Below are positions 9,664 to 29,983 of a stretch of 53,360 nucleotides of DNA, piece by piece; the stretch's first letter is position 1, and each line of letters begins with the position of its first letter. The position numbers and the translations under genes are program-made. Below the pieces are notes generated by a model. That model was not told where the DNA came from and searched no databases. It worked only from the letters and a program-made list of their open reading frames with translations. This DNA is from a virus: IMG/VR virus record IMGVR_UViG_3300045988_161096; one strand, given 5' to 3'.

Positions 9664-9731
9664 AAATATATTTATGAATAATAAATAAGTTAATAAAATT
9701 TAAAATATTTTTTTAATTCAAATATTATTAT

Positions 9732-11254: not shown

Positions 11255-11256
11255 TT

Positions 11257-12090
11257 ATGGCAAAGAATTATAATACAACTGATTTATCTCCAGACCAAGC
11301 TATGGAGCGTCACATTTATCACAGAGACCAGTTTGCTCATTATTTGAGGTGGACACACATCTTGAAAGACGCTAAAATTGGTGATGATGTGGTAGATTTT
11401 GGATGTGGTCAAGCTAATTTGCTTGAAGTGTTTTACAGAAATAAGTTTAAGTGTAACAGCTATGTTGGCATCGATATTCGACACAAAACTATTGCAGATG
11501 ATGCAGCTAAGTTTGCATCAGTTCCTTGGGCTAGCTTCTATGAGGCTGACCTTGTTAAAAATTATCTTGATTACAGCCAGTTTAATGGCAATAAGGTGTG
11601 TGCTTTCGAGGTTCTTGAGCATGTCGGTAAACAGAATGCCGATGTTTTCCTGGAGAACTTTAAAGCGTGTGGACGTGATGATGCAACTTATTATCTTTCT
11701 ACTCCAAATTACGACCCTCGTGTTGGTGCTGCAGGTAATCATACTTATGATTCTGGGGACGGAAGAGGTGTAGATGTTCAAGAGTTTGACCACTACGAAC
11801 TTGAGGCTATTCTCAAAAAGCACTTTGATATTGTCGATAAGTTTGGAACATTTGCTTCACAGAAAGATTATAAGCCTCTCATGAATGATTGGCAGAAGCA
11901 AATGTTTAAAGAATTGAGTCGTTATTATGATTCAAATCTTATGGCAAATATCATGGCTCCAATGTTCCCAGATGCTGCTCGTAATACTCTGTGGATTTTG
12001 AAGCGTAAACCTGGCGATATTAAAGTTCCAAAGAATTCAAAGCCGGCTTCTATAGACCCAAATCCTGGTAATATAGACGATTTACTTTAA
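11257..12090 (+). CDS. class I SAM-dependent methyltransferase (small-molecule type, not a canonical DNA MTase)
   Basis: Motif I VVDFGCGQANLL, post-I YVGIDI, FEVLEHV. I saw no DPPY/NPPY or PCQ DNA-methyltransferase motifs. Confidence 0.75.
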   Translation: MAKNYNTTDLSPDQAMERHIYHRDQFAHYLRWTHILKDAKIGDDVVDFGCGQANLLEVFYRNKFKCNSYVGIDIRHKTIADDAAKFASVPWASFYEADLVKNYLDYSQFNGNKVCAFEVLEHVGKQNADVFLENFKACGRDDATYYLSTPNYDPRVGAAGNHTYDSGDGRGVDVQEFDHYELEAILKKHFDIVDKFGTFASQKDYKPLMNDWQKQMFKELSRYYDSNLMANIMAPMFPDAARNTLWILKRKPGDIKVPKNSKPASIDPNPGNIDDLL

Positions 12091-12097
12091 AAAGAAT

Positions 12098-12133
12098 AAC
12101 AGTAGTTAAAGCTTGTTAACTTTAACTACTGTT
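12098..12133 (+). terminator. 14-bp perfect hairpin (AACAGTAGTTAAAG / CTTTAACTACTGTT) after the methyltransferase gene; possible terminator or operator
   Basis: Perfect inverted repeat with an 8-nt loop. The 3' arm runs into the conserved TTAACATAAAAAAT promoter box. There is no immediate T-tract, so terminator function is uncertain. Confidence 0.4.
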
Positions 12134-12176
12134 AACATAAAAAATTTCACTATATGAAAATTTTTATGTAATTTTG
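12131..12176 (+). promoter_or_regulatory. promoter: upstream box GTTAACATAAAAAATTT plus -7 box TAATTTTG (12169-12176)
   Basis: Exact TAnnTTTG 46 nt upstream of ATG 12222. Same two-part layout as at 16708, 17730, 29938 and 52467. Confidence 0.6.
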
Positions 12177-12221
12177 CACATATAAATAATTTAGTTATTC
12201 ACATATTAAAATTTTACAATT

Positions 12222-12743
12222 ATGAATTCAGTAATGCAGATTGCAAAAGTAAGAAAGGTTAAAACTCCAGAGCGTGGTACATCTAAGTCAGCTGGTATTG
12301 ATTTCTTTGTGCCAGAGGATTTTTCAGGTCAGATGCTTCAGCCACACGAGGATGTGCTTATCCCATCTGGTATTTCAGCTCTTATTCCAGATGGATATAT
12401 GCTTATGGCTGCTAACAAGTCTGGCGTTTGTCCATCAAGAGAGGCTAAGCTTGATTGTGAGACAGAGATGAAAATCACAGGCCAAGATACAACTATTTCA
12501 AGTTGTGTTATTATTGGTGCATCTATCGTCGATGAGGACTATCCTGGTGAGATTCACATTCATCTCATTAATGTAGGCAAAGAGCCAGTGTGGATTGAGC
12601 GTGGTCAGAAGATTGCTCAGTTTATTTTGGTTCCTGTATCTTATGCAGATATTTGCGAAGCTTCTCCTGAAGTTGTTAAGGCTGCTGTTCTTGCTAAGAA
12701 GAGTGAACGAAAAGGAGGTTTTAACTCTACTTCAGAAGAGTAA
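12222..12743 (+). CDS. dut: dUTPase-family protein (trimeric dUTPase/dCTP-deaminase fold) with an insertion
   Basis: Motifs SAGIDFF, ANKSG, GASIVDEDYPGEIHIH, GQKIAQFI and C-terminal RKGGFNSTSE. There is a ~30-aa insert between motifs 2 and 3. Confidence 0.8.
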   Translation: MNSVMQIAKVRKVKTPERGTSKSAGIDFFVPEDFSGQMLQPHEDVLIPSGISALIPDGYMLMAANKSGVCPSREAKLDCETEMKITGQDTTISSCVIIGASIVDEDYPGEIHIHLINVGKEPVWIERGQKIAQFILVPVSYADICEASPEVVKAAVLAKKSERKGGFNSTSEE

Positions 12744-12874
12744 TAAATTGTCCCAGTAACATCCTCTATAGTCCCAGAGTTAACGAAATATATTTATAAT
12801 ATAAATTATTATATTATATGTTTCAATTGCTCTGGGATAAAAAGAGGAGTTCTATCTATTAAAAATATCAGATT

Positions 12875-13306
12875 ATGAAGAAAGTACCGGAAGTAGTAAA
12901 AGAACCTATATTCTTGAAATTCGTAGAGCATTATGCTAAAAAATTCAAAGAAAGCAACGGCTTTGGCATGTGGCTACACGAATATAAGGATATGGAAAAG
13001 AAAGGCTTATTTGCTCCAAAAATTCTGAGAACTTTCTATATTCAGATATGTACAGATAAGTTTAATTTAGGCTTTATTAGAGACGATGCAATTTGGTATA
13101 TATGTTCACAAGCCGTTGACGCAGCTAACACCTACATAGACGAAAGAGTTAATTCTATGTATAGGATTGTTCTTATAACTGGAGAGCAAGCTGAAGATGA
13201 AGATGGAGACCCATACACAGAATTAACTTATGAAGAAGCTAAAGAAATATGCCAAGCATTAAATGAAGAAGCCGAAGAAGAATTGTTTAAAATGCAAAAG
13301 ATATGA
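12875..13306 (+). CDS. hypothetical protein
   Basis: 143-aa ATG ORF with an acidic C-terminus. The stop overlaps the next ATG (ATGA). Confidence 0.55.
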   Translation: MKKVPEVVKEPIFLKFVEHYAKKFKESNGFGMWLHEYKDMEKKGLFAPKILRTFYIQICTDKFNLGFIRDDAIWYICSQAVDAANTYIDERVNSMYRIVLITGEQAEDEDGDPYTELTYEEAKEICQALNEEAEEELFKMQKI

Positions 13307-13533
13307 GCAAAGCTATAGATTTACGAAAATATACAAAACTGGTGCCAACTCCAGTAGCAGAAATTACTAAAGAACAGTTTTTTGCATACGAAAGAACTAG
13401 AATGGAAGGCAAAGTGAATATGCTTGATTTGAATGCAGTTTGTCCATTAACAGGCTTAAAGCCTGAAGACATTAAAGCTATTCAGCAAAACTTTCAAGTG
13501 TTAAATCAAAAATTCAATAAATCATGGAGGTAA
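13303..13533 (+). CDS. hypothetical protein
   Basis: 76-aa ORF coupled on both sides to its neighbours. Confidence 0.5.
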   Translation: MSKAIDLRKYTKLVPTPVAEITKEQFFAYERTRMEGKVNMLDLNAVCPLTGLKPEDIKAIQQNFQVLNQKFNKSWR

Positions 13534-14276
13534 ATTTTGAAATTTCTTATCCATATATTACCCAATCTGACAATAATTGGGTATATGAAAATGCAAATCA
13601 AGCATTTAATATTTTGGCTAATCGTATATTTAAACTTGGTGAAATGCCAGGTAATAATACAGTTAGACTTGAAAATGTTGGTTTTTATATTGCGCATCCA
13701 GAGCACAATCATATTACTGAAGATTGGCGCCAATGGAATGCTAAATATGCAGAAAGAGAGTGGAATTGGTACCTATCTCATTCGAGAGATGTATCAGAGC
13801 TTCAAAAGCATGCTCCTATTTGGAAACGCATGCACTGTGGCGATTGTCAAGTCAATTCTAATTATGGCTGGCTGTGGAACCGCAACAAACAGCTACAGAA
13901 AGTAATTGAGAAACTTGAGGACAATCCAGATACTCGTCAAGCATGGCTTACACTGTATGATGGTAAGGAAATGGATGACTATGAATATGATACTCCATGT
14001 ACACTGAATATTGGTTTTAAACTTGAATATATGAGTCAGAAAACTCTTAATATGACAGTTATGATGAGAAGTAATGACTTGATATTTGGTTTTTGCAATG
14101 ACCAGTACTGTTTTTCTCAGTTACAAAAGTATGTTGCTTCTAGAATTGGTGCGGCAGTTGGAACATATTATCATTTTGCTCAGGACTTGCATATATACTT
14201 ACCAAGCACAAAAGTATATCCAAAGCACATTAATGATTATTTAGTAGACAATTTTGTAGACTATTTGAAATTATGA
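13524..14276 (+). CDS. thymidylate-synthase-family pyrimidine methylase/hydroxymethylase (dUMP or dCMP; specificity not resolvable by eye)
   Basis: Catalytic Cys context DTPCTLNIGF. MMRSNDLIFGFCNDQ corresponds to the RS.D..LG.PFN block. SNYGWLWN corresponds to the GPVYG.QWR block. DLHIY is also present. It is strongly diverged from canonical ThyA, as phage hydroxymethylases are. Confidence 0.7.
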   Translation: MEVNFEISYPYITQSDNNWVYENANQAFNILANRIFKLGEMPGNNTVRLENVGFYIAHPEHNHITEDWRQWNAKYAEREWNWYLSHSRDVSELQKHAPIWKRMHCGDCQVNSNYGWLWNRNKQLQKVIEKLEDNPDTRQAWLTLYDGKEMDDYEYDTPCTLNIGFKLEYMSQKTLNMTVMMRSNDLIFGFCNDQYCFSQLQKYVASRIGAAVGTYYHFAQDLHIYLPSTKVYPKHINDYLVDNFVDYLKL

Positions 14277-15896: not shown

Positions 15897-15985
15897 TAGC
15901 AGTAATTATTATATTTTCAGCTGTGCTTGGCATATTTATATCGTGGTGCTTAATAGCAGGTGGAGGACGAAGAGATGAAGACTGA
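15893..15985 (+). CDS. small membrane peptide (30 aa)
   Basis: Hand-translated: MIAVIIIFSAVLGIFISWCLIAGGGRRDED*. ATGA overlap with the upstream stop, and it overlaps the next ATG. Confidence 0.35.
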   Translation: MIAVIIIFSAVLGIFISWCLIAGGGRRDED

Positions 15986-16403
15986 AATAATTCAACTCAC
16001 TGGCGATTCTTTCTATTATTTGAGAGATGGCGAAGAGCCTATTGACCCAGATAATCTTGAAGAAGCAGAAGAGTTTAAAACTCTGTTTGGTAATTTCAGA
16101 TTTATATCTGAACCAGAACCTATTGTGGGCACCGATATGGTAGAAGCTAAAATATCAGCAGCAGAACGAAAGAAAATAGCAGGTCAATTCATATTTGAGT
16201 TTATCATTCTTCCAAATAAAAAAGCTCATGTGCGAGTTTTTGATTTAAAAACCAATTATGAGGAAAGAAATCAAATTCAAGACTTGGAGCCAATTGGTGA
16301 CGCATATTGGGTTGAGTATAGATACCACAGTACTTCTCGTTGTAGAGATTTACTTCCAGTTTGTAAGATACACGAATATGAAAAATGGTTTGGCAAAAGT
16401 TAA
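15975..16403 (+). CDS. hypothetical protein
   Basis: The track ORF starts at GTG 15960; the in-frame ATG at 15975 (MKTEIIQLTG...) is preferred. This is the last gene of the early block and is followed by hairpin A. Confidence 0.55.
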   Translation: MKTEIIQLTGDSFYYLRDGEEPIDPDNLEEAEEFKTLFGNFRFISEPEPIVGTDMVEAKISAAERKKIAGQFIFEFIILPNKKAHVRVFDLKTNYEERNQIQDLEPIGDAYWVEYRYHSTSRCRDLLPVCKIHEYEKWFGKS

Positions 16404-16405
16404 TT

Positions 16406-16461
16406 TCCTATCTGGTGTTCTCTTGGGACTATTTCCGAGAAAATGCCAGATAGGATTTTTT
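16406..16461 (+). terminator. intrinsic terminator; copy A of the GTGTTCTCT hairpin family
   Basis: 10-bp stem TCCTATCTGG / CCAGATAGGA plus inner TTCTC / GAGAA, followed by T6. Begins 3 nt after the stop of the upstream gene. Confidence 0.75.
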
Positions 16462-16627
16462 GTAAATTTTTGTAAATTTACACACTGGTTCTGAAAATTG
16501 GTGAGATTTTAATCATTATAAACCTATAACGCACCGGTTCTAGGAACTGGCTTTTAACTAATACTGTTGCAATGCCGGGACTTATATAATGTGCTAAGCT
16601 GTTTCAGTGCCGCATTATTACCCTATA

Positions 16628-16641
16628 CGCGGGCGCCCGCG
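16628..16641. repeat. perfect 14-bp GC palindrome CGCGGGCGCCCGCG followed by a TA-rich tract
   Basis: Self-complementary when read directly. An identical copy lies at 25999-26012. It stands out in an AT-rich genome. Confidence 0.95.
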
Positions 16642-16707
16642 CGTACATATTATATATTATATATAGTAAGTGTTAACGGTAGTTAAAGATAAAGCTGTTA
16701 ACTCTTC

Positions 16708-16752
16708 TTAACATAAAAAATTTTTTTATTTGAAAAATTATTAGTACTTTTG
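16708..16752 (+). promoter_or_regulatory. promoter: TTAACATAAAAAATTTTTTT box plus -7 box TACTTTTG (16745-16752)
   Basis: Exact TAnnTTTG 50 nt upstream of ATG 16802, with the conserved upstream box. Confidence 0.65.
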
Positions 16753-16801
16753 CACTCAGATAAAACATAATAAGTTTAACAATTAAAATCACAGTAAAAT
16801 T

Positions 16802-17188
16802 ATGAAAACAGAAATTATTTTGAAAGTCGACAAACTCGAGAATTTAGTAGCATGGATTGCTCGCAATTTTGTATGTGGAAATATTCCAACAAACGTAAGA
16901 GCTCTTTACATGTTTGCCAACAGGCCAGGTACTTCAATGGAGGAAGATGGTATTGATAGATGCAGCAAGTTTGATGACGAAGACGAAGCTGAAAAATATT
17001 TTGAGGCTTTGAGCCAATCCAAGTTCATTATAGACTCTGAGCTGGTTGACCAAGATGTTATTAGAGACGATACTACAGCTGAAGTTATTCACGTTGCAGA
17101 AACTTGGAAAATTACAGTTACTCCAAGCATGAATAATACTGAAGATGCTTTCGTAGCTTATTGCCCAAGACCATACAATCCAGAGTAA
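16802..17188 (+). CDS. hypothetical protein
   Basis: 128-aa ATG ORF preceded by the conserved leader AACAATTAAAAT. Confidence 0.6.
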   Translation: MKTEIILKVDKLENLVAWIARNFVCGNIPTNVRALYMFANRPGTSMEEDGIDRCSKFDDEDEAEKYFEALSQSKFIIDSELVDQDVIRDDTTAEVIHVAETWKITVTPSMNNTEDAFVAYCPRPYNPE

Positions 17189-17223
17189 TAACGCAAATGT
17201 TTAACAATTAAAATATTAAGATT

Positions 17224-17403
17224 ATGAGAAAGCCAAAGTTCGTTCCGGTTGATTGGAACCTGAAGAAAATTGCAACTTATTTGCAAATGAGTTTAGTAAT
17301 TGCTAGTAGTACTCAGTTCTCTCCAAGAGTATTTAAATACTGGGAGAGATACTGTAAAGCAGAATGGGGATGCACGTTACACAGTTCAGTGCCTCGCAGC
17401 TAG
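17224..17403 (+). CDS. hypothetical protein (59 aa); possibly the 5' part of a frameshifted gene
   Basis: The ATG is preceded by the conserved leader TTTAACAATTAAAATATTAAGATT. The ORF ends at TAG 17401-17403 while the +1 frame stays open to 17512. Confidence 0.45.
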   Translation: MRKPKFVPVDWNLKKIATYLQMSLVIASSTQFSPRVFKYWERYCKAEWGCTLHSSVPRS

Positions 17404-17512
17404 TAACACAACAGCTATTATTAAATATGCTGGTTCAGAGATATATGTTACCATTGATTTAATCTTAGATGGTGGCAAGGTAAGAACATCAACTAAAGCA
17501 GAGTTATCGTAA
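17300..17512 (+). CDS. ORF without an ATG, in the +1 frame relative to 17224-17403; possible 3' part of the same gene
   Basis: The track ORF starts at TTG and has no in-frame ATG. Its stop lies 2 nt before the next ATG (17514), which fits the tight gene packing. Confidence 0.3.
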   Translation: MLVVLSSLQEYLNTGRDTVKQNGDARYTVQCLAASNTTAIIKYAGSEIYVTIDLILDGGKVRTSTKAELS

Positions 17513-17513
17513 T

Positions 17514-17660
17514 ATGGGAAGAGGTTGGAAATTATTTGAAGCTCTTAAGGATATTGTAAGTCCTGAGGATATTCTTGAGGAAATGGCTAGAAATATGAGC
17601 GACCAAGAGTTGCTTGACACTGTTAAAGAAATAGCAAAGAACTTTGATGTAGAACTGTAA
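17514..17660 (+). CDS. hypothetical small acidic protein (48 aa)
   Basis: Hand-translated: MGRGWKLFEALKDIVSPEDILEEMARNMSDQELLDTVKEIAKNFDVEL*. Confidence 0.4.
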   Translation: MGRGWKLFEALKDIVSPEDILEEMARNMSDQELLDTVKEIAKNFDVEL

Positions 17661-17729
17661 GCATAAAATTTCAGTGATTAAATAGCAAAAAGATGTGTTA
17701 ATGATTTTTAACATTTTCATTAACACTTC

Positions 17730-17774
17730 TTAACATAAAAAGTTTTCATATTTCAAAAATTATGAGTACTTTTG
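17730..17774 (+). promoter_or_regulatory. promoter: TTAACATAAAAAGTTTT box plus -7 box TACTTTTG (17767-17774)
   Basis: Exact TAnnTTTG 48 nt upstream of ATG 17822. Preceded by the 10-bp hairpin GTGTTAATGA / TCATTAACAC (17695-17727). Confidence 0.65.
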
Positions 17775-17821
17775 CAAATGTAATTAGAACATATAAGTTT
17801 AACAATTAAATACACAAAATT

Positions 17822-18958
17822 ATGGCAACAATGAAATTCGCCCAGATGGCAACAAAGAAGTTACAGAAGTTAGTTAACGACCCAGCAACCTCTGATGAGG
17901 ACAAGGTAGCAATTCAGGCTATTCTTGATAAGCGACAGGCAGCTGCTCAGGCTCCAGCAGATAATGGAGCAGCACTTTCTCCAGAGGAGCAGGCAGCTAT
18001 CGATGCAGCAGAGAAGGAAGCCGCTAAGCAGAATTCTGAAGCTGGTGAGAACAAGGAAGCAAAGCCTAAGGCTAAGCGTGAGGCAAAGCCAAAGCAGAGC
18101 ATGGAGGAACTTGACGCTGAGGTTGCAAAGGCAAATGAGGAGGCTCTCGGTCATCGTTGTGAGACACTCATGCCTGGTACTGCTATTAAGGTTGGTGGTT
18201 ACGTTAAGGGAGTTCTTAAGGAGAAGCGAGCTATGCGCTGCTATCTTCTCATCCAGTCCGATGTTACAGATGAGAACCCTACAGGTCGCCAGTTCTACAA
18301 GGTGTTCAAAGAGGTTACAATCTTGCCGGAGACTGTAGAGCTTCACAAGGCTAAGAAGACAGGCGCTCGTCGTAAGGCTCAGGTTGATACTGAAGAGTGG
18401 ATGGCACAGGCCGATGAGATTGTAGAGGCTGCTGGTTCTTATGTAGGTCGCCAGATTGACCTTGGCGACGATACTAAGACAGATTCTCGAATTGAGACCA
18501 TTATCAAGGACAAGCGCTCTTGCACAGTGTTCTTCCGCATTGGCTTCAAGGATGAGAATGGTGCTCACAAGTTCACTCACAAGGCAATCCATTCAACCAA
18601 GGATGAGGCTGAAGGTGGTAAGGTAGTTATCACAGAGCCAGAGGGCTTGCTCCCATTGGATGATGCTGATGAGACTTACAAGGAGTTCCAGACCAAGTGG
18701 CAGACACGTGCTGAGCGTCAGCCAAGAACTGCTCTCACTCCTGAAGAGAAGGTTATCCGCGCAGAAGAGGCTCTTAACAAGGCAAAGAAAGCCTTGGAAA
18801 AAGCTAAGGAAGCACTTCAGAACAAGCAGCTCGAGTATGACAACGCTAAGGCTGCTCTCGATGCTAAGCATGATGAGCAGGAAGCCAATGCAGAAGCTGA
18901 GGCTAAAGAGGCAGTAGACGCTGCAGCTGCTGAAGCAGAGTCAGGTGACCTTATGTAA
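17822..18958 (+). CDS. Ala/Glu/Lys-rich protein of unknown function; monocistronic, probably abundant
   Basis: 378 aa with low-complexity A/E/K termini and a globular middle. It has its own promoter and a strong terminator. Codon choice is visibly GC-richer than in neighbouring genes. Confidence 0.7.
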   Translation: MATMKFAQMATKKLQKLVNDPATSDEDKVAIQAILDKRQAAAQAPADNGAALSPEEQAAIDAAEKEAAKQNSEAGENKEAKPKAKREAKPKQSMEELDAEVAKANEEALGHRCETLMPGTAIKVGGYVKGVLKEKRAMRCYLLIQSDVTDENPTGRQFYKVFKEVTILPETVELHKAKKTGARRKAQVDTEEWMAQADEIVEAAGSYVGRQIDLGDDTKTDSRIETIIKDKRSCTVFFRIGFKDENGAHKFTHKAIHSTKDEAEGGKVVITEPEGLLPLDDADETYKEFQTKWQTRAERQPRTALTPEEKVIRAEEALNKAKKALEKAKEALQNKQLEYDNAKAALDAKHDEQEANAEAEAKEAVDAAAAEAESGDLM

Positions 18959-19016
18959 AACAATTAGTTGATTGTTTTCTTCTCATAAATGTTTTTAAGT
19001 ATACTGTTTGAAATTG

Positions 19017-19060
19017 AACTCCTAGGAAGCGACTAATGGACTGTGGTCCTAGGAGTTTTT
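19017..19060 (+). terminator. intrinsic terminator
   Basis: 11-bp perfect stem AACTCCTAGGA / TCCTAGGAGTT with a 19-nt loop, running into T5 (19056-19060). Confidence 0.7.
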
Positions 19061-19064
19061 AAAT

Positions 19065-19133
19065 GCCAAGTAAAACAAATATCTGCTGTTCTGTTTAAAG
19101 GATTTATGCAGGGTTCGATTCCCCGCCTTGGCA
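19065..19133 (+). ncRNA. tRNA-like element with a non-canonical core
   Basis: T-loop GGGTTCGATTCCCC (19111-19124). Acceptor-like 6-7 bp GCCAAG / CTTGGC. The core has an AAACA / TGTTT stem with a 14-nt loop and a TAAA-GGA-TTTA hairpin. I found no 5-bp/7-nt anticodon arm by exhaustive hand scan. Confidence 0.35.
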
Positions 19134-19196
19134 CTATTGGTTCTAACTACGGTGAGAACCCATAATTTTAATAGAATTTTAATTGTTTTTAGGCGG

Positions 19197-19234
19197 ATAG
19201 GTAATCGTTGTGAAACGGTTACCTATTATTTTTT
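19197..19234 (+). terminator. intrinsic terminator
   Basis: 13-bp stem ATAGGTAATCGTT / AACGGTTACCTAT (one G-T pair) with a GTGA loop, followed by TATTTTTT. Confidence 0.75.
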
Positions 19235-19608
19235 ACAGTAACATATAGAAACGGCTCGCTGGTGGCAAATTTTAAAATTTTCAGATATTTATATATAAAT
19301 AATATATTAAATTATATAGAATATTTGATCCACACCGCATTATTTTTATTAATTAATATAATTATAAGGCTTAATATAAAATATTGAATTCTAGGTACCA
19401 GGAAATGGTTTTAGCTAGAAAGCTGACATCTGGATATAGAAACCGGCAAGTTAAGCCTACAAACTTTAACATTTCATTTAACTACTGTTAACATAAAAAA
19501 TTCTTGTGTGAACTGTGATAACTATCTTACCTGTCCATTGGCAGTTGACGGTTCTAAAGGTAGTTGGGTGTGTGATAGTTGGTGGAGAATGGTGTGATAA
19601 AACCTCAA

Positions 19609-19665
19609 TTCCTATCCAGTGTTCTCTCGCTGGCCATTTCTAAGATTTGGCCAGCGGGAATTTTT
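19609..19665 (+). repeat. copy B of the GTGTTCTCT hairpin family (terminator-like, but no upstream ORF)
   Basis: TTCCTATCCAGTGTTCTCTC, then the 8-bp stem GCTGGCCA / TGGCCAGC, then GGGAATTTTT. Confidence 0.7.
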
Positions 19666-20032
19666 ATGAACTTTTACAGAATTTCAGCACACCGGGAGTA
19701 CGATTCGGGTACATTCCTGTTAATAATAGTGGAACGCTACAATATCGCTGTGCATTCATTACAGCTTCTCAGCTATACTGTTACAGTGCCGGGAACCATA
19801 TTTGCTGCGTACTCACCGGGTCTAATAGCCTATATATTATATATAATAATGTACGCGCATATAATAAAAATATTCGAAATAATAAAATATTTAATATTAA
19901 AAATTATTAATTTAAAAGTTAAATATTTTAATAATTATATTTTATAATAAAATCGGGAAATAATATATTAATTTATTATTATTTTTAATCATATAATAAT
20001 AGATTTATTTATTTAAAAATAAAATATGAATT

Positions 20033-20086
20033 AAAGTCAAAAAATTTTTTTATTTCAAATATTATTATTATCTTTGCGTCAGATAA
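20033..20086 (+). promoter_or_regulatory. promoter: AAAGTCAAAAAATTTTTTT box plus -7 box TATCTTTG (20079-20086)
   Basis: Exact TAnnTTTG 35 nt upstream of ATG 20121. Confidence 0.6.
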
Positions 20087-20120
20087 TTAAAATAATAAGA
20101 ACAATTAAAATATTAAGATT

Positions 20121-20423
20121 ATGACAGTAAAATTACAGAAATTAAACAAGAATCAGATGGTTAAGTTGCTGGATGCAATTAACCGTGAAGGAGTTGATAA
20201 TCAATTCTGGGCTGTAAGCAGCTATGAAAATAGTTGGAATGCAGCTGAGGTTTTCAGCGGCACAAATCAAACAGAATTTGAGCCGGGAGATTATATTACA
20301 GTAATGTACGATGAAGAAAACCAGTTTCCTACATTTGATGAGAATCTCAGCATTGTTACTAGTTTTCCACACTATGATTACTGGATTGAGGAGGGTTTAA
20401 GAGTGTTAATTTTCAAGATTTAA
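20121..20423 (+). CDS. hypothetical protein
   Basis: 100-aa ATG ORF with the conserved leader AACAATTAAAAT. Confidence 0.6.
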   Translation: MTVKLQKLNKNQMVKLLDAINREGVDNQFWAVSSYENSWNAAEVFSGTNQTEFEPGDYITVMYDEENQFPTFDENLSIVTSFPHYDYWIEEGLRVLIFKI

Positions 20424-20446
20424 AACAGTTAAAATATATTAAGATT

Positions 20447-21193
20447 ATGATGGTAAGAAGCGATGAATCAGTATTAGAGCTGAATATAGCCGAGTTTTTG
20501 GCAGAGTATTTCACTGGTTCTACCAGTGCAAAGGACCAGTTCTCATACGGTCCATTTTGGGATGCTGTAGTTGCGGATAACTATAACGGTGAAAGAATTA
20601 ATATTTTCACAGGTAATAAACAGAAGCACGATGGCAGTTTCTATTACGAATATGGCTTGCTTAAAGCCGAGGAAGAAATGGAAGCCGAGCATCTAGTTAC
20701 AGAACTGAGGCTTGACGGCATTTATGGCTATAATATTTTCTATGAAAACCCGGATGAAGAGCCGGTATCATTCTACTTCTACACCAGAACTAGAATCGCT
20801 GCATTCATCCAGCACGAGAATGAAGTTATGAACCTTGCAGCTGAAATGTTGGAAATCACCCAGCAGAAACCAATTCTGTGTCTTGAAAGTCACACGCGTT
20901 TATTCCGTAGTGCTCTTGATTCCATACTGCAGGCTTACTCGAATGGTGAATACAGCAATGAAGATTTGCGGAGAGAATACTGTCCAGATGTTACCGAGGT
21001 TTACACGGATTGGATGCGGTACAAGTTCAGATGTTCTAACGAGTATGAAGCTTATATGCTTATGGTTGGAGACGTGGAGGGAAACAACGTTTGTAACGCA
21101 ATCGACGCGGCGTGGACTTGGTTCCATACAGGCTTCGTGAATAACTTCATCAGTAAAGACCCAGAAACTAATTTACTTCACTTAAACTGGTAA
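20447..21193 (+). CDS. hypothetical protein
   Basis: 248-aa ATG ORF with the leader AACAGTTAAAAT. No motif recognised. Confidence 0.6.
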   Translation: MMVRSDESVLELNIAEFLAEYFTGSTSAKDQFSYGPFWDAVVADNYNGERINIFTGNKQKHDGSFYYEYGLLKAEEEMEAEHLVTELRLDGIYGYNIFYENPDEEPVSFYFYTRTRIAAFIQHENEVMNLAAEMLEITQQKPILCLESHTRLFRSALDSILQAYSNGEYSNEDLRREYCPDVTEVYTDWMRYKFRCSNEYEAYMLMVGDVEGNNVCNAIDAAWTWFHTGFVNNFISKDPETNLLHLNW

Positions 21194-21197
21194 TAAT

Positions 21198-21311
21198 ATG
21201 GTTTGTTTTATTTTAATATCTGTAGGTCTGGTGATTTTCACCGGACTTACTCCAGAGGAATGGAAACGGTGGTGGCACAAGAACTATACTTGGGACGACA
21301 CAGAACTGTAA
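21198..21311 (+). CDS. small membrane peptide (37 aa)
   Basis: Hand-translated: MVCFILISVGLVIFTGLTPEEWKRWWHKNYTWDDTEL*. Confidence 0.35.
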   Translation: MVCFILISVGLVIFTGLTPEEWKRWWHKNYTWDDTEL

Positions 21312-21332
21312 TTTGGTAATTTAATATCTCAA

Positions 21333-21388
21333 TTCCTATCTGGTGTTCTCTCGGACCCATTTCCGCAGAATCACTGGGTAGGAATTTT
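21333..21388 (+). terminator. intrinsic terminator; copy C of the GTGTTCTCT hairpin family
   Basis: 13-bp stem TTCCTATCTGGTG / CACTGGGTAGGAA containing three G-U pairs, followed by T4. Lies 22 nt after the stop at 21311. Confidence 0.7.
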
Positions 21389-21574
21389 AGTGAATCTTTG
21401 TAGTTTTACAGTACTGCGCCAGAATCGGACGGAAACAATTCAAGTTTAGTTACGGTTCTATGGCTGCTTTGGAGCCGAACTGTTACGGTGCCGGGATTTT
21501 GGGTAGGTGATAAGCTGAAAAACGGCACGTGAACAGCAATGGAGCCATAAAATGGCTCGGGTTAAAAGCCGGAG

Positions 21575-21626
21575 AAATCCAGTGTTCTCTCGGAGCCATT
21601 TCCTGGAAAATCACGGCTGGGAATTT
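21575..21626 (+). repeat. copy D of the GTGTTCTCT hairpin family
   Basis: AAATCCAGTGTTCTCTCGGAGCCATTTCCTGGAAAATCACGGCTGGGAATTT. No ORF lies upstream. Confidence 0.65.
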
Positions 21627-21687
21627 GCATGAAGCCTTGTAGAATTGCGGCTTTATACCTGATAAGTATCTGACCTATATTTATATA

Positions 21688-21733
21688 TTTTTAGACTAAA
21701 TAAAGTCAAAAAATTTTTTTATTTAAAATATTT
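21688..21733 (+). repeat. 46-bp perfect direct repeat, copy 1 (contains the promoter-type box AAAGTCAAAAAATTTTTTTATTT)
   Basis: TTTTTAGACTAAATAAAGTCAAAAAATTTTTTTATTTAAAATATTT is identical at 21915-21960. Confidence 0.9.
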
Positions 21734-21914
21734 CGCCCGAAGCTCATATTTGGCCTATATGGGCTTTAAATTATAAAATAATATATTTATATATAAAATA
21801 AAAAATAAGGCCTTATAGGCCCATTAAATGGCCTTAAAATCGATTTTTTAATATAATATATAAACTAGATTTTTATATATTATTTATAAAAATTTTTTAC
21901 TTTATTATTAATAA

Positions 21915-21960
21915 TTTTTAGACTAAATAAAGTCAAAAAATTTTTTTATTTAAAATATTT
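21915..21960 (+). repeat. 46-bp perfect direct repeat, copy 2
   Basis: Identical to 21688-21733. Confidence 0.9.
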
Positions 21961-22123
21961 TTATATATGCGTGTACTTATATATTTATATAAAAAATTTT
22001 TTATAATAATTTTTTACTTAGACTATAATTTATAATTAAAATAATATATCGATTTATTATTATTTTTGACTATATAATAATAAATTTTTTTATTTAAAAA
22101 TAAAATATTAATAAAAGTCAAAA

Positions 22124-22157
22124 AATTTTTTTATTTAAAATATTATTATTATCTTTG
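22124..22157 (+). promoter_or_regulatory. promoter: AAAGTCAAAAAATTTTTTT box plus -7 box TATCTTTG (22150-22157)
   Basis: About 130 bp here are paralogous to 19960-20090. The first ATG with the conserved leader is 232 nt downstream (22389). Confidence 0.5.
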
Positions 22158-22388
22158 CACTATAAATAATAAATATATAGCCTATATAATTATATTAGTT
22201 ATAATTAGATTTTTTTATATTATTTATTAATTATTTTTAGAGTTCTTTGACTTATTGGACAACGTTAGCAATAATTAAGGATTATTAGCAACGGTTAAAT
22301 AATATTAATTTTATAATATTTAATTATATTTTAATATTTTTAGTGTTAGTTAAAAAATTATAAAAACAATTAAATTATATTAAAAATT

Positions 22389-22730
22389 ATGAAAAAAATT
22401 AAAATTTCGCGTTCTTTCACTTTTAAGGCTTATAAAGTTGAAGTAGACCAAAAAATATTAAATGATTCTAAAAAATATTTAGAATTCATAAATAATATTA
22501 AAAGTGCAAATATTAGCAAACATTATGGTTCTTTCACTTTTAAAAGCGATTGTGAATATTATGTAGAAAAAAATATTTTAGATATTTTTAATAATATTTC
22601 ACAAGGTCCAAAAAATGCTAATTTTTATTTAATTTATAAAATTTCAACATTAGAGGACTCAAATATTAGTGATTCTTTGCTCATGTCAATTTATTATAAT
22701 ATTGACGAAGAAAAAATAATTTTAGATTAA
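22389..22730 (+). CDS. hypothetical Asn/Lys/Ile/Tyr-rich protein encoded in the AT-rich island
   Basis: 113-aa ATG ORF with the leader AACAATTAAAT. Followed by a palindromic hairpin. Confidence 0.5.
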   Translation: MKKIKISRSFTFKAYKVEVDQKILNDSKKYLEFINNIKSANISKHYGSFTFKSDCEYYVEKNILDIFNNISQGPKNANFYLIYKISTLEDSNISDSLLMSIYYNIDEEKIILD

Positions 22731-22740
22731 TTTAATAAAT

Positions 22741-22766
22741 ACTAGGCTATATTAATATAGCCTAGT
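22741..22766 (+). terminator. palindromic hairpin ACTAGGCTATAT-TA-ATATAGCCTAGT (possible terminator)
   Basis: 12-nt perfect arms, followed only by ATTT, so it would be a weak terminator. Confidence 0.4.
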
Positions 22767-22787
22767 ATTTCTAAAAATATATTAAAT

Positions 22788-23183
22788 ATGGACAATAAAG
22801 ACGAATTTTATTTAAAAATAGTGGTTTTTAGTCATTTTTTCGATTATTTAGCACTTGGGCTAAATTATACTAATGACTATAAATTTAGTGATTATTATAA
22901 ATTATTTGAACTTATTAATAAAGATGAAAATATTAAAAAGTTTAATAATATTATTAATAATTATGATTTATTAGATTTCGTTAACGATATTTATAATAAT
23001 AATATAAATATTAAATTATTTTATGATACGCAAAAATTATTAGTAAATATTAGCGATGGTGAAAAATATTATATTTTTGGCATAGATATTAGGCATAAAA
23101 TATTTAAAAATTATAAAAATATGCAACATTTTGTTAGCGAACTCGAAGATTATATAGATTTTACTTTTAATAATAAAAATTAG
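22788..23183 (+). CDS. hypothetical Asn/Lys/Ile/Tyr-rich protein encoded in the AT-rich island
   Basis: 131-aa ATG ORF. Its stop lies inside the following terminator stem. Confidence 0.5.
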   Translation: MDNKDEFYLKIVVFSHFFDYLALGLNYTNDYKFSDYYKLFELINKDENIKKFNNIINNYDLLDFVNDIYNNNINIKLFYDTQKLLVNISDGEKYYIFGIDIRHKIFKNYKNMQHFVSELEDYIDFTFNNKN

Positions 23184-23210
23184 GCTAATTATTATTAGCC
23201 TAATTTTTTT
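23180..23210 (+). terminator. intrinsic terminator
   Basis: 10-bp stem TTAGGCTAAT / ATTAGCCTAA with a TATT loop, followed by T7. Confidence 0.75.
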
Positions 23211-23972
23211 ATTTAATTATTTTAACGTTTGTTTATTTTAGTTTAATGGTTAAATAATTTAAAAATTTAATTAATTTTAAGCTAAAAATCGGTATTTTTT
23301 TGACACTTATTAGCATTTAATTGCTAAAAAATATTAAATTATTCTAATTTTAGCTAATAGGTTGTTAAATTATTCTAAATTATTCTAAATTTAATTAATT
23401 TTAGGCTAAAAAATTAATAGCCTATTAGGCTAAAAAATATTAATTTTAATAAAAATTAGGCCCCCTTAACAATTATTAGCCTGGCAGCCCCTTATTATTT
23501 AAAGACTTGTCCAAATGCTGAGCCAAAAATTTCTGCTGTACACATCTTATGACTTGTGAATAGGTTGATAGAGATATGCTTCATCAATTCATAAAATACT
23601 GACAAGGAGGGGCCCTTAGGCTCAATTCTATATTGCGCATTTTGTTCAGAAAAATTTTTGCGCAAAATAGGTTCGCTGGACGACACGCTATAGTAGTATA
23701 AATGTATATTGGTATGCGCCTACGCGCGTATATAGAGGGTTCAAAAATATTAAAAACATGCCCAGGGATGAAAGTAGTGTACCTCTGGGCCATTATAATA
23801 TAAAAATAATAAAGATATATAGTTTAATATATAAAAATGGTTCTGAGGCTCATTATTTTAATTCTTACTAGAAATATATAACAACTAATCACGGTTCCGC
23901 CTTTTGCGCTTACAAGTCTATATTATAAGTAGCGATTTTCACGGGATTTAAGACAATTACTACGGAATAATG

Positions 23973-24243
23973 GTTCACCAAAGTAAAAATCTTTTACGGT
24001 TCCTCATAACCTATTGAAAACCAATCACTTATATAAACGTTCCTGGAGGCCGGACCTTTTCTATAACCCTAAACCAATTTTTTAAAATTCACATTATATG
24101 TTTCTGGTAATACATTTTTAAAAAGTTCATTTTCCTTATATAGAGTATAGGGTAACTTGGGTAACTTTTTATATAAGTGTTTGATTTCCAATAATTTAGA
24201 AGTGCCCCGACCTCATTCACCTATAGTTCACCTATGGTTCACG
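23973..24243 (-). repeat. iteron/inverted-repeat module L1; inverted paralogue of 52069-52329
   Basis: On the - strand there are three 11-bp-spaced GTGAAY repeats (24215-24243), GGGTAAC x2, ~32-bp imperfect inverted arms (24008-24040 and 24165-24197) and a distal GGTGAAC (23973-23979). Its reverse complement aligns by eye along the full length of the 52-kb module. Confidence 0.8.
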
Positions 24244-24340
24244 GACTGCCATTTCATCAATATATTTTACAAAATATGTGATTTCCTCAGTAAAATTTAA
24301 CTGAAATGTAATAATTTTTTAATTTTTCAAGTAAAAAGCT

Positions 24341-24363
24341 TTAACACCTACGGTTTCAGTAAT
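24341..24363 (+). repeat. 23-nt perfect direct repeat TTAACACCTACGGTTTCAGTAAT, copy 1
   Basis: Identical at 24459-24481. Both copies are preceded by GTGATTT(C/TT)CTCAGTAAAA. Confidence 0.9.
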
Positions 24364-24458
24364 TAATTCTTTTCACACAAACATTACTAAGAACTGAAGC
24401 ATTAAATTACCACGTTTTTACAAAAGTGATTTTTCTCAGTAAAAATGAGTAAAAAGTT

Positions 24459-24481
24459 TTAACACCTACGGTTTCAGTAAT
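24459..24481 (+). repeat. 23-nt perfect direct repeat, copy 2
   Basis: Identical to 24341-24363. Confidence 0.9.
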
Positions 24482-24539
24482 CAAATGTTAAAAAATATTA
24501 AAATTTATATAAAAATTTCCTAGATTCAATAATTTTTAG

Positions 24540-26576: not shown

Positions 26577-29318
26577 ATGAACACTCCAAAAAGAACACTC
26601 TCCGAAATGCAGCAGAGAGTTATAAATGCAGATACTCTTAAGCATGATATGGTAAATGCTAAAGACTTATTGCGTCTTGAGATGCTTTCATCATTCAAGG
26701 CTTATACTAAAGCTATGTTTAAAGCTCAGTATAACCGAAACTTTATTGTAGCTGAGCATCATGAAGCTATATTCAAGGCTTTACAGGACGTAGTTGATGG
26801 TAAGTGCAGAAGACTTATCATCAATATGCCTCCTAGATATGGCAAATGCTGTGCTATTGGCACACAGATAACACTCGCCGATGGAACTAGAAAGTCTATA
26901 GAAAGTATAAAACCTGGAGAATACGTCTTATCATTTCACAATGGAAAAGCTGTAAGGAATAAAGTTATTGCAACTGAACCGGCTTTCAAAAATAGTAGCA
27001 TGATTACAATGAAGTCAGGCAGAAAAGTTATATGTAGCTTAGACCACCCATGGTTAACTCCTTTTGGTTATAAGAAAACACAAGAACTTAAAGCTGGTGA
27101 GAGAATTTATGCCTTGAAATCTGATATAGAGCAGCCCGACTGTTTGTCTGATTCAGAGGTTATACTTATTTCAGCCATGTTATTTGATGGCTGTTGTACC
27201 AAGCCAGGTAAGTTGGGATTTACAAATGTAGATAACTTGGCAGTAGACGCAGTTTCTAGAGCTGTGTATAATCTTGGAGGCATTATGAAAAAAGGAGCAA
27301 CAACAGACTGTCAATATTATATATTAGGGGGTAAAAATGGCGTAATAAATAATGTATTAACTGAATATGGCTTAGTAGGTCATAGCTCATATAACAAAAG
27401 AATTCCAGATAAAATCTTTAAGACTTCTAGCCGACAAAAGTATTTATTTTTAGGAATGATGATAGCTACCGATGGAACGATTAAACAAAGTGGTCAAATT
27501 TCCATAGGCTTAGCTAACGAGGGCCTAGCTAATGATATTCAGTATTTACTGTCAACTATAGGTATTCCAGCCACTTTAAACTGGTACCCTAATGCTAAAG
27601 CGGGAATATGGAATGTAGCTATATCCAGAAGATATGCTCAGAGAATGTTCAATAGACTTGATTTTTATGGAAAGGCTAATACTGCGGCTGAATATATTTT
27701 AAAGCCTTCTAAGATAGAACGCACGTGTACATATCCATATAGTATAATTCAGAAAGAAGGTCTCTATAAAAAGGTGCATATTGATTTAGGCTATAAATCT
27801 GTTGGTCCTGGCAGAAATATGTCTGAAGACACATTTAAAGAACTAGTTGATTTGCTACCTGATAAGTTGGGAAAATACTGGGCTTACGACTTTTATCCAG
27901 ATGAGATAAAAGATGTAGTTTCAGTAGGAGCACAAGAACTTATACATCTTGAAGTCGAGAATGACCACAATTTCATAGCAAACGGATTGGTTTCACATAA
28001 TACGGAATTGGCAATTAAATCATTTATTAGCTGGTGCATGGCCCTCAACCCACGCTGTAGATTCTTGCACCTATCATATTCCGACGTGCTTGTAGCAGAT
28101 AACTCAGACACTGTAAGGTCTATCATGCAAGAAAGTCTATATAAAGAGCTGTTTCCGCAATCTAAGCTTGAAAAAGAGAAAGCTTCTAATAAACGTTGGC
28201 GAACAGCTGCAGGCGGAGAGATGTATGCGGTTTCAACACAAGGTCAGGTAACCGGTTTTGGTGCTGGTAATGTGGATGAAGAGGAACCAATCAAAGGTTC
28301 TGAAACTGCCGACAACCTTACATTCGATGAAGATATGAATGGAATGCTTGAGCAGATAGGTGCTAAGACTAATGTGTTCCAAGGTGCAATCATGATTGAC
28401 GACCCTATTAAGCCTGAGGATGCTGATTCAGATATAGTTCGTGAGCGAATTAATTTGCGATTCGAAAATACAATTCGTAACCGTACTAATAGCCGCAACA
28501 CTCCTATTATCATAATCATGCAGAGACTACATGAGCACGACTTGTGTGGATATTTGCAGGAGATAGAGCCAGATGAGTGGACAGTTCTATCGTTGCCGGC
28601 TATACAGGAAGACCCTATTACTCATGAACGCCATGCCCTGTGGCCTATGAAGCATACACTCGAAGAGCTTGACCACATGCGAGAGATTAACCCACTCGTA
28701 TTCGATACTCAGTACATGCAGGACCCTACACCAAAAGAAGGTCTTATGTATTCTGAAGGTTTTAAGACTTATAACAAAGACCAATTACCACAAGGCCGAG
28801 AAGCTGCTCACAAGTGGAACTACACAGATACAGCTGATACAGGAGCTGATAATCTGTGCTCCATCTGTTTTATAGATACACCTGAGTATGTATATGTTAC
28901 AGATGTGTTGTTCACAGATGCGCCAATGGAGAAAACAGAGCCAAAGACAGCAGAGATGTTAACACGAAATCAGACCGTATCAGCTCTTATAGAATCGAAT
29001 AACGGTGGTAGAGGCTTTTCTAGAAATGTTAAAAAGATACTTCGTGTAACGCATAGAAACTTTAGAACTGCTGTTAGAACGTTTACTCAGTCTGAGAAAA
29101 AAGCAACACGTATATTTACTAATTCTGGAATGTGCCAAAGCGATATTCTGTTCCCAGAAGGCTGGGAAAAGAAGTGGCCTAAGTTCTATGCGGCTCTTAT
29201 GTCGTATCGTAAAGATAATAAGAAACAGCAGCACGATGATGCACCAGATGCTCTTACAGGCATAATTGAGATGCATAGTAGAAAATATAATACTAATAGA
29301 ATAAGACTGAGAAATTAA
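26577..29318 (+). CDS. terL: terminase large subunit, interrupted by an intein (extein about 528 aa)
   Basis: The Walker A motif PPRYGK|TELAIK is restored after removing residues 91-475. Walker B is AIMIDDPIKPED, followed by IIIMQRLHEHDL. The nuclease half has YTDTADTGADNLC, ALIESNNGG and HDDAPDAL. Confidence 0.9.
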   Translation: MNTPKRTLSEMQQRVINADTLKHDMVNAKDLLRLEMLSSFKAYTKAMFKAQYNRNFIVAEHHEAIFKALQDVVDGKCRRLIINMPPRYGKCCAIGTQITLADGTRKSIESIKPGEYVLSFHNGKAVRNKVIATEPAFKNSSMITMKSGRKVICSLDHPWLTPFGYKKTQELKAGERIYALKSDIEQPDCLSDSEVILISAMLFDGCCTKPGKLGFTNVDNLAVDAVSRAVYNLGGIMKKGATTDCQYYILGGKNGVINNVLTEYGLVGHSSYNKRIPDKIFKTSSRQKYLFLGMMIATDGTIKQSGQISIGLANEGLANDIQYLLSTIGIPATLNWYPNAKAGIWNVAISRRYAQRMFNRLDFYGKANTAAEYILKPSKIERTCTYPYSIIQKEGLYKKVHIDLGYKSVGPGRNMSEDTFKELVDLLPDKLGKYWAYDFYPDEIKDVVSVGAQELIHLEVENDHNFIANGLVSHNTELAIKSFISWCMALNPRCRFLHLSYSDVLVADNSDTVRSIMQESLYKELFPQSKLEKEKASNKRWRTAAGGEMYAVSTQGQVTGFGAGNVDEEEPIKGSETADNLTFDEDMNGMLEQIGAKTNVFQGAIMIDDPIKPEDADSDIVRERINLRFENTIRNRTNSRNTPIIIIMQRLHEHDLCGYLQEIEPDEWTVLSLPAIQEDPITHERHALWPMKHTLEELDHMREINPLVFDTQYMQDPTPKEGLMYSEGFKTYNKDQLPQGREAAHKWNYTDTADTGADNLCSICFIDTPEYVYVTDVLFTDAPMEKTEPKTAEMLTRNQTVSALIESNNGGRGFSRNVKKILRVTHRNFRTAVRTFTQSEKKATRIFTNSGMCQSDILFPEGWEKKWPKFYAALMSYRKDNKKQQHDDAPDALTGIIEMHSRKYNTNRIRLRN
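26847..28001 (+). mobile_element. 385-aa intein with a LAGLIDADG homing-endonuclease domain, inserted in the TerL P-loop
   Basis: Starts with Cys (CCAIGTQITLADG). Block B is CSLDHPWLT. Two LAGLIDADG motifs: LISAMLFDGCC and LFLGMMIATDGT. Ends ...HNFIANGLVSHN, followed by the +1 Thr. Confidence 0.9.
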
Positions 29319-29937: not shown

Positions 29938-29983
29938 TTTAACATAAAAAATTTTATTATCTCAAATATTTTTAGTATATTTG
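29938..29983 (+). promoter_or_regulatory. promoter: TTTAACATAAAAAATTTT box plus -7 box TATATTTG (29976-29983), driving the tRNA cluster and late genes
   Basis: Exact TAnnTTTG. The tRNA cluster starts about 125 nt downstream. Confidence 0.6.

Follow-up and report, generated by a model that had tools for sequence, protein, structure and literature searches.

Paralogous hairpins with a conserved box at the boundaries of early gene cassettes in a relative of Bacteroides fragilis phages

The window analysed here, the whole 53,360-nt stretch of IMG/VR virus record IMGVR_UViG_3300045988_161096, is most of a phage genome of ~53 kb that has nearly every gene on the + strand. Genes for an exonuclease, a DNA polymerase, a primase-helicase, a second helicase, a single-strand DNA-binding protein, and enzymes of nucleotide metabolism occupy 0.3–16.4 kb, and the terminase, portal, and structural genes run from 24.5 kb onward. 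Between these replication and structural blocks, at 16.4–24.5 kb, lie small genes that have no family match in family searches, in groups that each stand downstream of a near-identical promoter with the Bacteroidota −7 consensus TAnnTTTG (PMC7366714). It is in this region that an earlier reading of the sequence (the original prediction) had picked out four paralogous hairpin elements with a shared box, copies A to D, and had taken them for something more than generic terminators. We find that the observation is real and that the elements are more than a set of generic terminators: they belong to composite terminator–promoter cassettes with an unexplained conserved tag. The nearest cultured relatives of the phage are the Bacteroides fragilis phage BF503P1 and its kin (portal protein of BF503P1, 68.7% identical); megablast and blastn found no DNA similarity to cultured phages, and BF503P1, the closest of them, has no copy of the element. 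Rfam at gathering thresholds reported two tRNAs in the window and no match to the element, and a search of 16300–22500 at E values up to 5 added a spurious miRNA match alone (22 bits against a 180-bit cut-off).

There are four exact copies of the core GTGTTCTCT in the 53 kb, at 16415, 19619, 21343, and 21582, all of them on the + strand (chance expectation for exact 9-mers in the window, ~0.4), and a hidden Markov model (HMM) of the element picks out these four places alone. Copy A (16406–16461) begins 2–3 nt past the stop codon (16401–16403) of the open reading frame (ORF) at 15960–16403 and consists of a hairpin (16406–16455) with a 14-bp outer and an 8-bp inner stem, followed by a T6 run (16456–16461); its box, ATCTGGTGTTCTCTTG (16410–16425), lies within the 5′ arm. 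Copy B (19614–19665) has a 12-bp hairpin (19625–19659) followed by an A and a T5 run (19660–19665), and only the TCTCG of its box, ATCCAGTGTTCTCTCG (19614–19629), is paired, as the base of the 5′ arm. Copy C (21331–21388), which begins ~20 nt past the stop of ORF 21198–21311, forms a long hairpin (21331–21386) with a T4 run at 21385–21388; its 5′ arm is the same as that of A, and its 3′ arm carries three G-U pairs. Copy D (21570–21626) has the box ATCCAGTGTTCTCTCG at 21577–21592 and is followed by AATTTGCA; its weak alternative pairings use either an upstream arm, CCGGAGAA (21570–21577), with TTCTC-T-CGG, or a downstream arm reaching 21614.

The hairpins of A, B, and C are of the stable, G+C-containing, + strand kind that characterizes intrinsic terminators (−30.9, −25.0, and −26.9 kcal/mol; z-scores of −7.3, −4.6, and −4.4 against shuffles), and they are 4–7 kcal/mol weaker when folded as the − strand. 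Copy D, on the other hand, folds no better than shuffles (z = −0.1) and lacks a T run, such that the hairpin plus U tract originally ascribed to all four copies holds for three of them. The placement of the conserved sequence also departs from the original description, in which the core lay in a loop or internal loop: GTGTTCTCT lies in the stem in A and C. Nor is one structure common to the four copies, as the box of B pairs with a partner different from that in A and C. Two ordinary terminator-like hairpins elsewhere on the + strand (19017–19062 and 19196–19240) have no box, which shows that terminators in this phage do not generally carry one.

Relatives were drawn from human-gut data sets by pattern searches and protein-anchored searches, giving ~40 contigs of the same phage group and, in addition, more distant clades; by marker-protein identity, these clades stand at ~72% (L100, L108, and L318), 65% (L322), 56% (L321), and 45% (L319 and L320), and L324–L326 were recovered as well. 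Across 21 distinct A and C sequences, 252 of 252 cells of the outer stem are paired (33–48% in slid controls). Seven of its 12 pairs vary; each does so on a single side, a G-U pair taking the place of a Watson-Crick pair or the reverse in every case. The B stem behaves similarly, with 97.7% pairing in the relatives and the same kind of exchange at six of 11 pairs, and in L321 a B-type stem is retained by two-sided changes (CUGCCA/UGGCAG replaces CUGGCC/GGCCAG). The pairs T21339–G21378, T21341–G21376, and G21342–T21375 noted earlier in copy C are borne out on folding; the 3′ arms of A and C in fact differ at five paired positions rather than three, all of them transitions that keep the pairing. 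Since a G-U pair on the + strand would be an A-C mismatch on the − strand, the structure is a + strand one. In the ~40 related contigs, too, the 3′ arms change by pairing-preserving transitions alone, which, together with the weaker − strand folds, upholds the earlier G-U argument and makes an RNA-level structure likely; as judged from this comparison, the + strand structure appears to be under selection. Among 72 distinct copies, 57 combine a hairpin of −8 kcal/mol or better with at least five U in the 8 nt directly after it, and 15 do not.

The box itself is more constant than the hairpin around it. The motif G[TA][GA]TTCTCTYG is intact in 107 of 110 HMM-found copies in the ~40 contigs, the exceptions being two C-type variants, and variation is confined almost wholly to the 3′ arms; mutated boxes occur as GTGTTCTTTTGG in L044 and as GTGTTCTCGTGG in L042 and L165. 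Within the clade of the window, the box reads AUC-YR-GUGUUCUCUYG, with a deep core of UUCUCUCGG in RNA (TTCTCTCGG in DNA). In relatives at 45–65% protein identity the 5′ box persists as GTGTTCTCTCG, or in deeper clades as GA[AG]TTCTCTCGG, while the adjoining hairpin is replaced by unrelated sequence. The box also stands beside unrelated stems, then followed by U4–6, in L108 at 5579, L318, L322 at 14500, and L321 at 14521. The original prediction had named as grounds for rejection the loss of the loop-side blocks in related phages; the 5′ box is kept, but CCATTTCY is not kept outside the close clade, and CCATTTCC is likewise limited to that clade and absent from relatives at 45–65% identity, so the claim of something more than generic terminators stands up for one of the two boxes.

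A further arrangement is found in the deepest clades, where L319, L320, L324, and L325 share the core TTCTCTCGG(nnn)GGTGCA. L319 and L320 have seven copies of CTCTGGARTTCTCTCGGGAGGGTGCA, several of which begin 34–51 nt past the last ORF of a small operon. Three copies of this type, and the one in L322 at 12660, have a separate hairpin of 14–16 bp (16 bp in L319, 14 bp in L322 at 12660; all non-Watson-Crick pairs are G-U) to which the box contributes the 3′ arm, and an independent terminator hairpin comes after it. The upstream arm of this first hairpin, (C/G)CGGGAGAA..., fits the local variant of the box (CUC with GAG; UGC with GUG); among relatives at 45–65% identity, an upstream arm CCGGGAGAA sometimes pairs with the core TTCTCTCGG, and its short form, CCGGAGAA, is present in copy D of the window and in L324 at 8495. 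Some copies, among them the D copies and copies 1 and 2 of L108, have box and hairpin and no U run; as the box is retained there, the mechanics of termination alone do not explain it. Taken together, these comparisons suggest that the box is under a constraint independent of its pairing partner.

The original prediction took each element to be ~55 nt long and overlooked that the hairpins are parts of something larger. Similarity among the copies starts ~35 nt upstream of the hairpin (in A, within the 3′ end of ORF 15960–16403) and continues for at least 250 nt, through shared boxes, to the next promoter. The repeat unit is thus a terminator–spacer–promoter cassette of 300–400 nt, with the hairpin as its first block, that bounds variable ORFan genes and behaves like a recombination linker. 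After the T run come, in order, a second box (YTTTGTAGAWTTACA), a small hairpin (CCGGTTCTAGGAACTGG), a box CTGTTRCAGTGCCG, a GC palindrome with a TA run, TTAAC repeats, and the promoter, which lies ~250–300 nt from the hairpin. In cassette A, the second box, TTTTTGTAAATTTACACACTGG (16467–16488), has a fixed position 10–13 nt past the T run; its equivalents lie at 19671–19690 (B), 21396–21413 (C), and 21635–21651 (D), all on the + strand, and distant clades retain it in the form TTTGTAGATTTAC, TTTGTGGGTTTTAC, or AATTGCGG. The spacer blocks of A (16534–16663), which have homologues in B and C, comprise the hairpin CCGGTTCTAGGAACTGG (16534–16550), two direct copies of CTGTTnCArTGCCG (~16572–16613), and the GC palindrome TACGCGGGCGCCCGCGCGTA (16626–16645), followed by the run TATATATTATATATA. 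The promoter end of cassette A (16698–16801) contains the TTAAC repeats, a T7 run, the −7 box TACTTTTG, and a shared 5′ untranslated region, AAGTTTAACAATTAAAA; paralogous + strand promoters are found at 17720–17821, 20022–20120, and 22103–22160, with promoter copies at 16716, 20040, 21936, and 22121.

Several features of the spacer were noted in passing. An alternating purine-pyrimidine GC palindrome, TACGCGGGCGCCCGCGCGTAC, adjoins TATATATTATATATA at 16626–16663, with homologous blocks after B at ~19840–19870, and this spacer block is kept in L100 and L108; it is possibly an easily melted or Z-DNA-prone region. After C (21481–21537), the CTGTTnCArTGCCG sequences face each other as inverted copies, CTGTTACGGTGCCG ... 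CGGCACGTGAACAG, and where relatives differ here, G-U pairs preserve the pairing; in L322 the sequences form a tandem repeat, with CAACAGTGCCGCGATATATACCTGC present twice. RNAalifold gave no clean consensus on the spacer of A, a long-range CCAGUG/CACUGG helix around the terminator is present in several copies and inconsistent, and a promoter at the second box is unsupported (TAGATTTA, TAGTTTTA, and TAGAATTG fit TAnnTTTG at only 7 of 8 positions).

Comparison with relatives indicates that the cassettes are places of exchange. Copies can be chimeric—L299 joins a D-type 5′ part to a C-type 3′ arm, L306 combines A with C, and mixed copies are likewise present in L040 and L307—and the A–B and B–C distances vary. 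Gene content between the elements differs even among close relatives, with breakpoints that fall in the cassettes: L168 is without 16807–19498, L169 is without 19502–20764, and the window itself lacks ~830 nt relative to L163, with the junction at 19496–19500, inside a promoter repeat whose truncated remnant, TTAACTACTGTTAACATAAAAAATT (19465–19500, + strand), forms the left edge of the deletion. This loss also accounts for one of the original statements about position. That A and C soon follow the last ORF of an operon is correct, and that B follows no ORF is true of this genome because the lost ~830 nt include the gene that stands ahead of B in L163, L100, and L108.

In these respects the cassettes resemble the promoter-early stem-loops (PeSLs) of T4-type phages (Arbiol et al. 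2010, PMC2839356; Comeau et al. 2014, PMC4122927), which are likewise repeated composite terminator/promoter motifs concentrated in a hyperplastic region, flanking small ORFan genes that each have their own promoter. As in PeSLs, a repeated stem-loop is here combined with an early host-type promoter, and the indels and replacements of close relatives end in the motifs; the copies described here are also chimeric. The differences are nonetheless substantial: the promoter is of the Bacteroidota TAnnTTTG type rather than sigma-70, the hosts are unrelated, the phage is unrelated to the T4-like myoviruses, and the cassette is 300–400 nt long with a conserved spacer, as opposed to ~100 bp. The box is fixed across clades, whereas the stems of PeSLs are described as poly-G/poly-C runs and are not known to carry such a tag. 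Mini-circles are a further feature shown for PeSLs. On this analysis we regard the cassettes as an analogue of PeSLs and not as a member of that group; they show PeSL-like modular shuffling of early ORFan genes at work outside T4-like phages, which bears on the turnover of accessory and anti-defence genes in gut phages.

What the box does is a question for which the original prediction offered three kinds of answer: factor-recognised termination or antitermination, RNA processing, and the 3′ ends of small RNAs. The first appears to fit best, processing of the RNase III type fits only A and C, and a small-RNA seed is unlikely. Our tentative reading, held at somewhat under an even chance, is that the elements are intrinsic terminators and that the box on each serves for recognition by a factor in control of termination or read-through. 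The paralogous + strand RNA hairpins, usually with a U run, form the upstream end of each cassette in the hyperplastic early ORFan region. The box belongs to the 5′ arm of the terminator hairpin or to its 5′ shoulder or, in other clades, combines with the upstream arm CCGGGAGAA into a separate hairpin just ahead of the terminator. In this scheme, a trans-acting phage or host factor recognising the box would set whether RNA polymerase stops or reads through, so that transcription of the replication operon and of the early cassettes would continue into downstream units in a timely way. Termination itself, the existence of the factor, and the direction of control are what we infer here. Some transcription past the sites is supported by the co-orientation of the genes, and the conserved copy D and the G-U-supported hairpin in the C–D spacer, both downstream of the strong terminator C, argue that transcription passes C at least sometimes.

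Known regulators with a similar layout are the BglG/SacY RAT, HutP, and ANTAR targets, in which, as in A, B, C, L318, and L321, a conserved sequence overlaps the 5′ arm of a terminator in paralogous copies. Unlike those targets, the present sites are 3′-end or inter-operon sites rather than 5′ leaders, and A to C have no conserved alternative antiterminator hairpin; no CAT/PRD, HutP, or ANTAR protein was detected in the window.

Several observations weigh against factor-controlled termination. The small early ORFs at 16.4–24.5 kb, matching no family, yield no candidate factor, and neither an antiterminator nor a sigma factor nor an RNA polymerase was found among the window proteins. A stem of 14–22 bp encloses the box in A, in C, and in copies of the L319 type, so a protein that binds single-stranded RNA would have to act co-transcriptionally, before the partner arm emerges. 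The elements lie at operon ends, unlike nut and put sites, which lie just downstream of promoters. The constancy of the box could in part stem from gene conversion among the copies, given that chimeras exist, or from a need to pair with two alternative partners. Moreover, although the structure is likely an RNA-level one, single-stranded DNA also tolerates G-T wobble when it folds.

A more specific form of the same idea, which seems to us possible rather than probable, is that the box is a cis-acting RNA signal peculiar to this phage family, with the ancestral form CCGGGAGAA-loop-UUCUCUCGG, that would recruit a dedicated factor, from the phage or from the host, to switch terminators on or off at cassette boundaries. 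To our knowledge, lambda-type N and Q systems are lacking in Bacteroidota phages, and we know of no termination or antitermination control system described for them; if correct, this would be the first. The timing of gene expression in gut Bacteroidota phages is little known, and a 9–11 nt terminator tag, present in several copies per genome and kept across several clades of ~50-kb gut phages, offers a concrete, mutable target for regulated termination.

The strongest alternative, which we consider a serious possibility though less likely than not, requires no factor at all: the elements would be plain intrinsic terminators, alike through cassette duplication and gene conversion, with a box held constant by several pairing partners, and the cassettes would be homologous-recombination linkers that shuffle ORFans. 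The extent of the repeat, which covers the whole intergenic cassette and ~35 nt of ORF 3′ end, speaks for this account, as do the exchange within the element recorded by the four chimeric or mixed contigs, the indels of relatives that end in cassettes, the variable spacing of the copies, and the documented precedent of PeSLs. It has more difficulty with the box. Gene conversion within a genome cannot fix the same 9–11 nt across clades at 45% identity in which the surroundings have been replaced; recombination tracts are typically longer than the invariant island, and the sequence immediately flanking it varies among paralogues; the box is retained in copies that are no longer terminator-like; and no second pairing partner in A, B, or C could explain the constraint. 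Conservation of the core across clades argues against duplication and gene conversion as the whole story. Should the tag have no function, the elements would be ordinary terminators serving as recombination linkers.

It is improbable, in our estimation, that the elements are nut-like sites, with the box as a phage boxA for host NusB-NusE and the adjacent hairpin as boxB, such that passing polymerases would resist later terminators. A short conserved box followed by a hairpin, in several paralogous copies per phage, does recall lambda nut (boxA and boxB) and rrn boxA, and a nut site needs no U run, which some copies lack. The rrn leaders of 102 Bacteroidales genomes have nGTTCTTTGA in common (GTTCTTTGA in 77 of the 102; commonest form GAGTTCTTTGAAA), and the phage boxes GUGUUCUCU and GAGUUCUCU (nGTTCTCTCG) match this host boxA at seven of the eight nucleotides read by NusB-NusE (PMC3177189), while the boxA of lambda itself deviates from its host consensus at positions 1, 8, and 9. 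The phage box lacks UUUGA, the most conserved stretch of the host motif, and its own most conserved stretch, CUCGG, is matched by nothing in boxA; chance could produce so good a match, with a probability that we roughly estimate at 1–3%. The phage box is mostly base-paired, whereas boxA acts single-stranded; the hairpins and their loops differ among copies and clades, so that a conserved boxB is lacking; and the sites, instead of standing close behind promoters, are joined to terminators where operons end. No N-like protein was found in the window.

We think it similarly unlikely that the elements are RNA processing sites, at which RNase III or a phage endoribonuclease would cut the duplexes and so separate or stabilise the mRNAs of the cassettes. 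Paralogous conserved processing hairpins are known from T7, and like those of the T7 early RNA and lambda sib, the present hairpins lie between co-oriented genes and transcription units and include long irregular duplexes: those of A and C exceed 20 bp and qualify in form as T7-type RNase III sites (about two helical turns with an internal loop), and the first hairpin of the L319 type reaches 16 bp. B, at only 12 bp, and D are too short, however, and several distant copies are likewise short-stemmed. RNase III is, moreover, little sequence-specific, which leaves the fixed box unexplained, and in some copies (L108 at 5579 and L322 at 14500) the box lies outside the duplex.

Least probable of the four alternatives, and very unlikely in our view, is a DNA-level element, in which a hairpin extruded on the + strand of single-stranded DNA would, together with the box, serve as the recognition site for priming, for nicking, or for site-specific recombination (compare ssi sites, REP elements with their RAYT transposases, and integron attC): the one-stranded design with a conserved box beside a variable hairpin, the single orientation of all copies, their coincidence with cassette boundaries, and the alternating purine-pyrimidine palindromes and TA runs of the spacer, which could melt easily, are countered by U runs and positions right after stop codons that suit terminators, by up to three G-U pairs per stem (weak as G-T in DNA), by chimeras that resemble ordinary homologous exchange, and by the failure to detect a recombinase, HUH nuclease, or integrase in the window.

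A number of minor readings were discarded. A small-RNA seed as the chief function is at odds with a box buried in stems of 14–22 bp in most architectures, and reverse-complement matches to the box elsewhere in the window, as candidate antisense partners, occur at chance level only. A short peptide could be read in the frame ATC-YRG-TGT-TCT-CTY-GG, open to the TAG/TAA of the second box in A, C, and D, but third codon positions are equally fixed, the frame differs in L100, and B stops early. The resemblance of TTGTAGAT to the Cas12a repeat is not accompanied by an upstream UCUAC partner, and the elemental pause motif G−10/Y−1/G+1 fits the box and is too loose to be meaningful. Many relatives' contigs break just after B or D, as genome ends at the elements would have them do, but the window reads through this region of 15% G+C, which makes assembly breaks the likelier cause.

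One protein of the early region was considered as a candidate trans-acting factor. The 378-aa product of 17822–18958 has its own strong promoter and a G+C content of ~48% against a background of 35%, and it is the sole early-region protein conserved across nearly all box-carrying clades; its homologue in BF503P1 is 25% identical and encoded on the opposite strand. It has no sequence relative in the PDB. A structural model (pLDDT 73.5) shows two small beta-barrels and a long C-terminal helix, with weak Foldseek matches to WYL, Tudor, CAP-Gly, and SH3-like types (best E value, 1.2e-3).

Downstream of the 378-aa gene, between the two box-less terminators that flank it, lies a tRNA-like element (19062–19138) with a 7-bp acceptor-like stem (UGCCAAG/CUUGGCA) and a T-arm-like AGGGUUCGAUUCCCC, without D arm or anticodon arm; ARAGORN and Rfam make no call there, and L100 and L108 have two copies each. 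The stretch at 21700–24500 is extremely A+T-rich (15% G+C at 22–23 kb), with small GC hairpins and promoter-like units AAAGTCAAAAAATTTTTTTATTTAAAATATT at 21706, 21933, and 22118; the contigs of many relatives stop within it, and its ORF 22389–22730 is still conserved in L319 (46% identity). Outside the cassette region, further early-type promoter motifs with 2–3 mismatches occur at 9703–9730, ahead of hypermodification genes, and at 29947–29974, ahead of the tRNA-Thr and tRNA-Met genes. The former genes (10064–14276) form a set for thymidine hypermodification, with a 5-hmdU DNA kinase (10064–11254; HMUDK_hel, E value 2.9e-42), a methyltransferase (11257–12090), a dUTPase (12222–12743), and a thymidylate-synthase-like enzyme (13524–14276); judged from this gene content, which recurs in the distant relatives L319, L321, and L322, the phage DNA probably contains modified thymidines. 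The gene for the large terminase subunit (26577–29318) is split by an intein (Intein_splicing, E value 3.8e-10) that includes a homing-endonuclease domain of the LAGLIDADG type (LAGLIDADG_3, E value 4.2e-7). Finally, the window ends (53300–53360) in a tandem GCAGCTCCA repeat within a coding region, probably the site of an assembly break.

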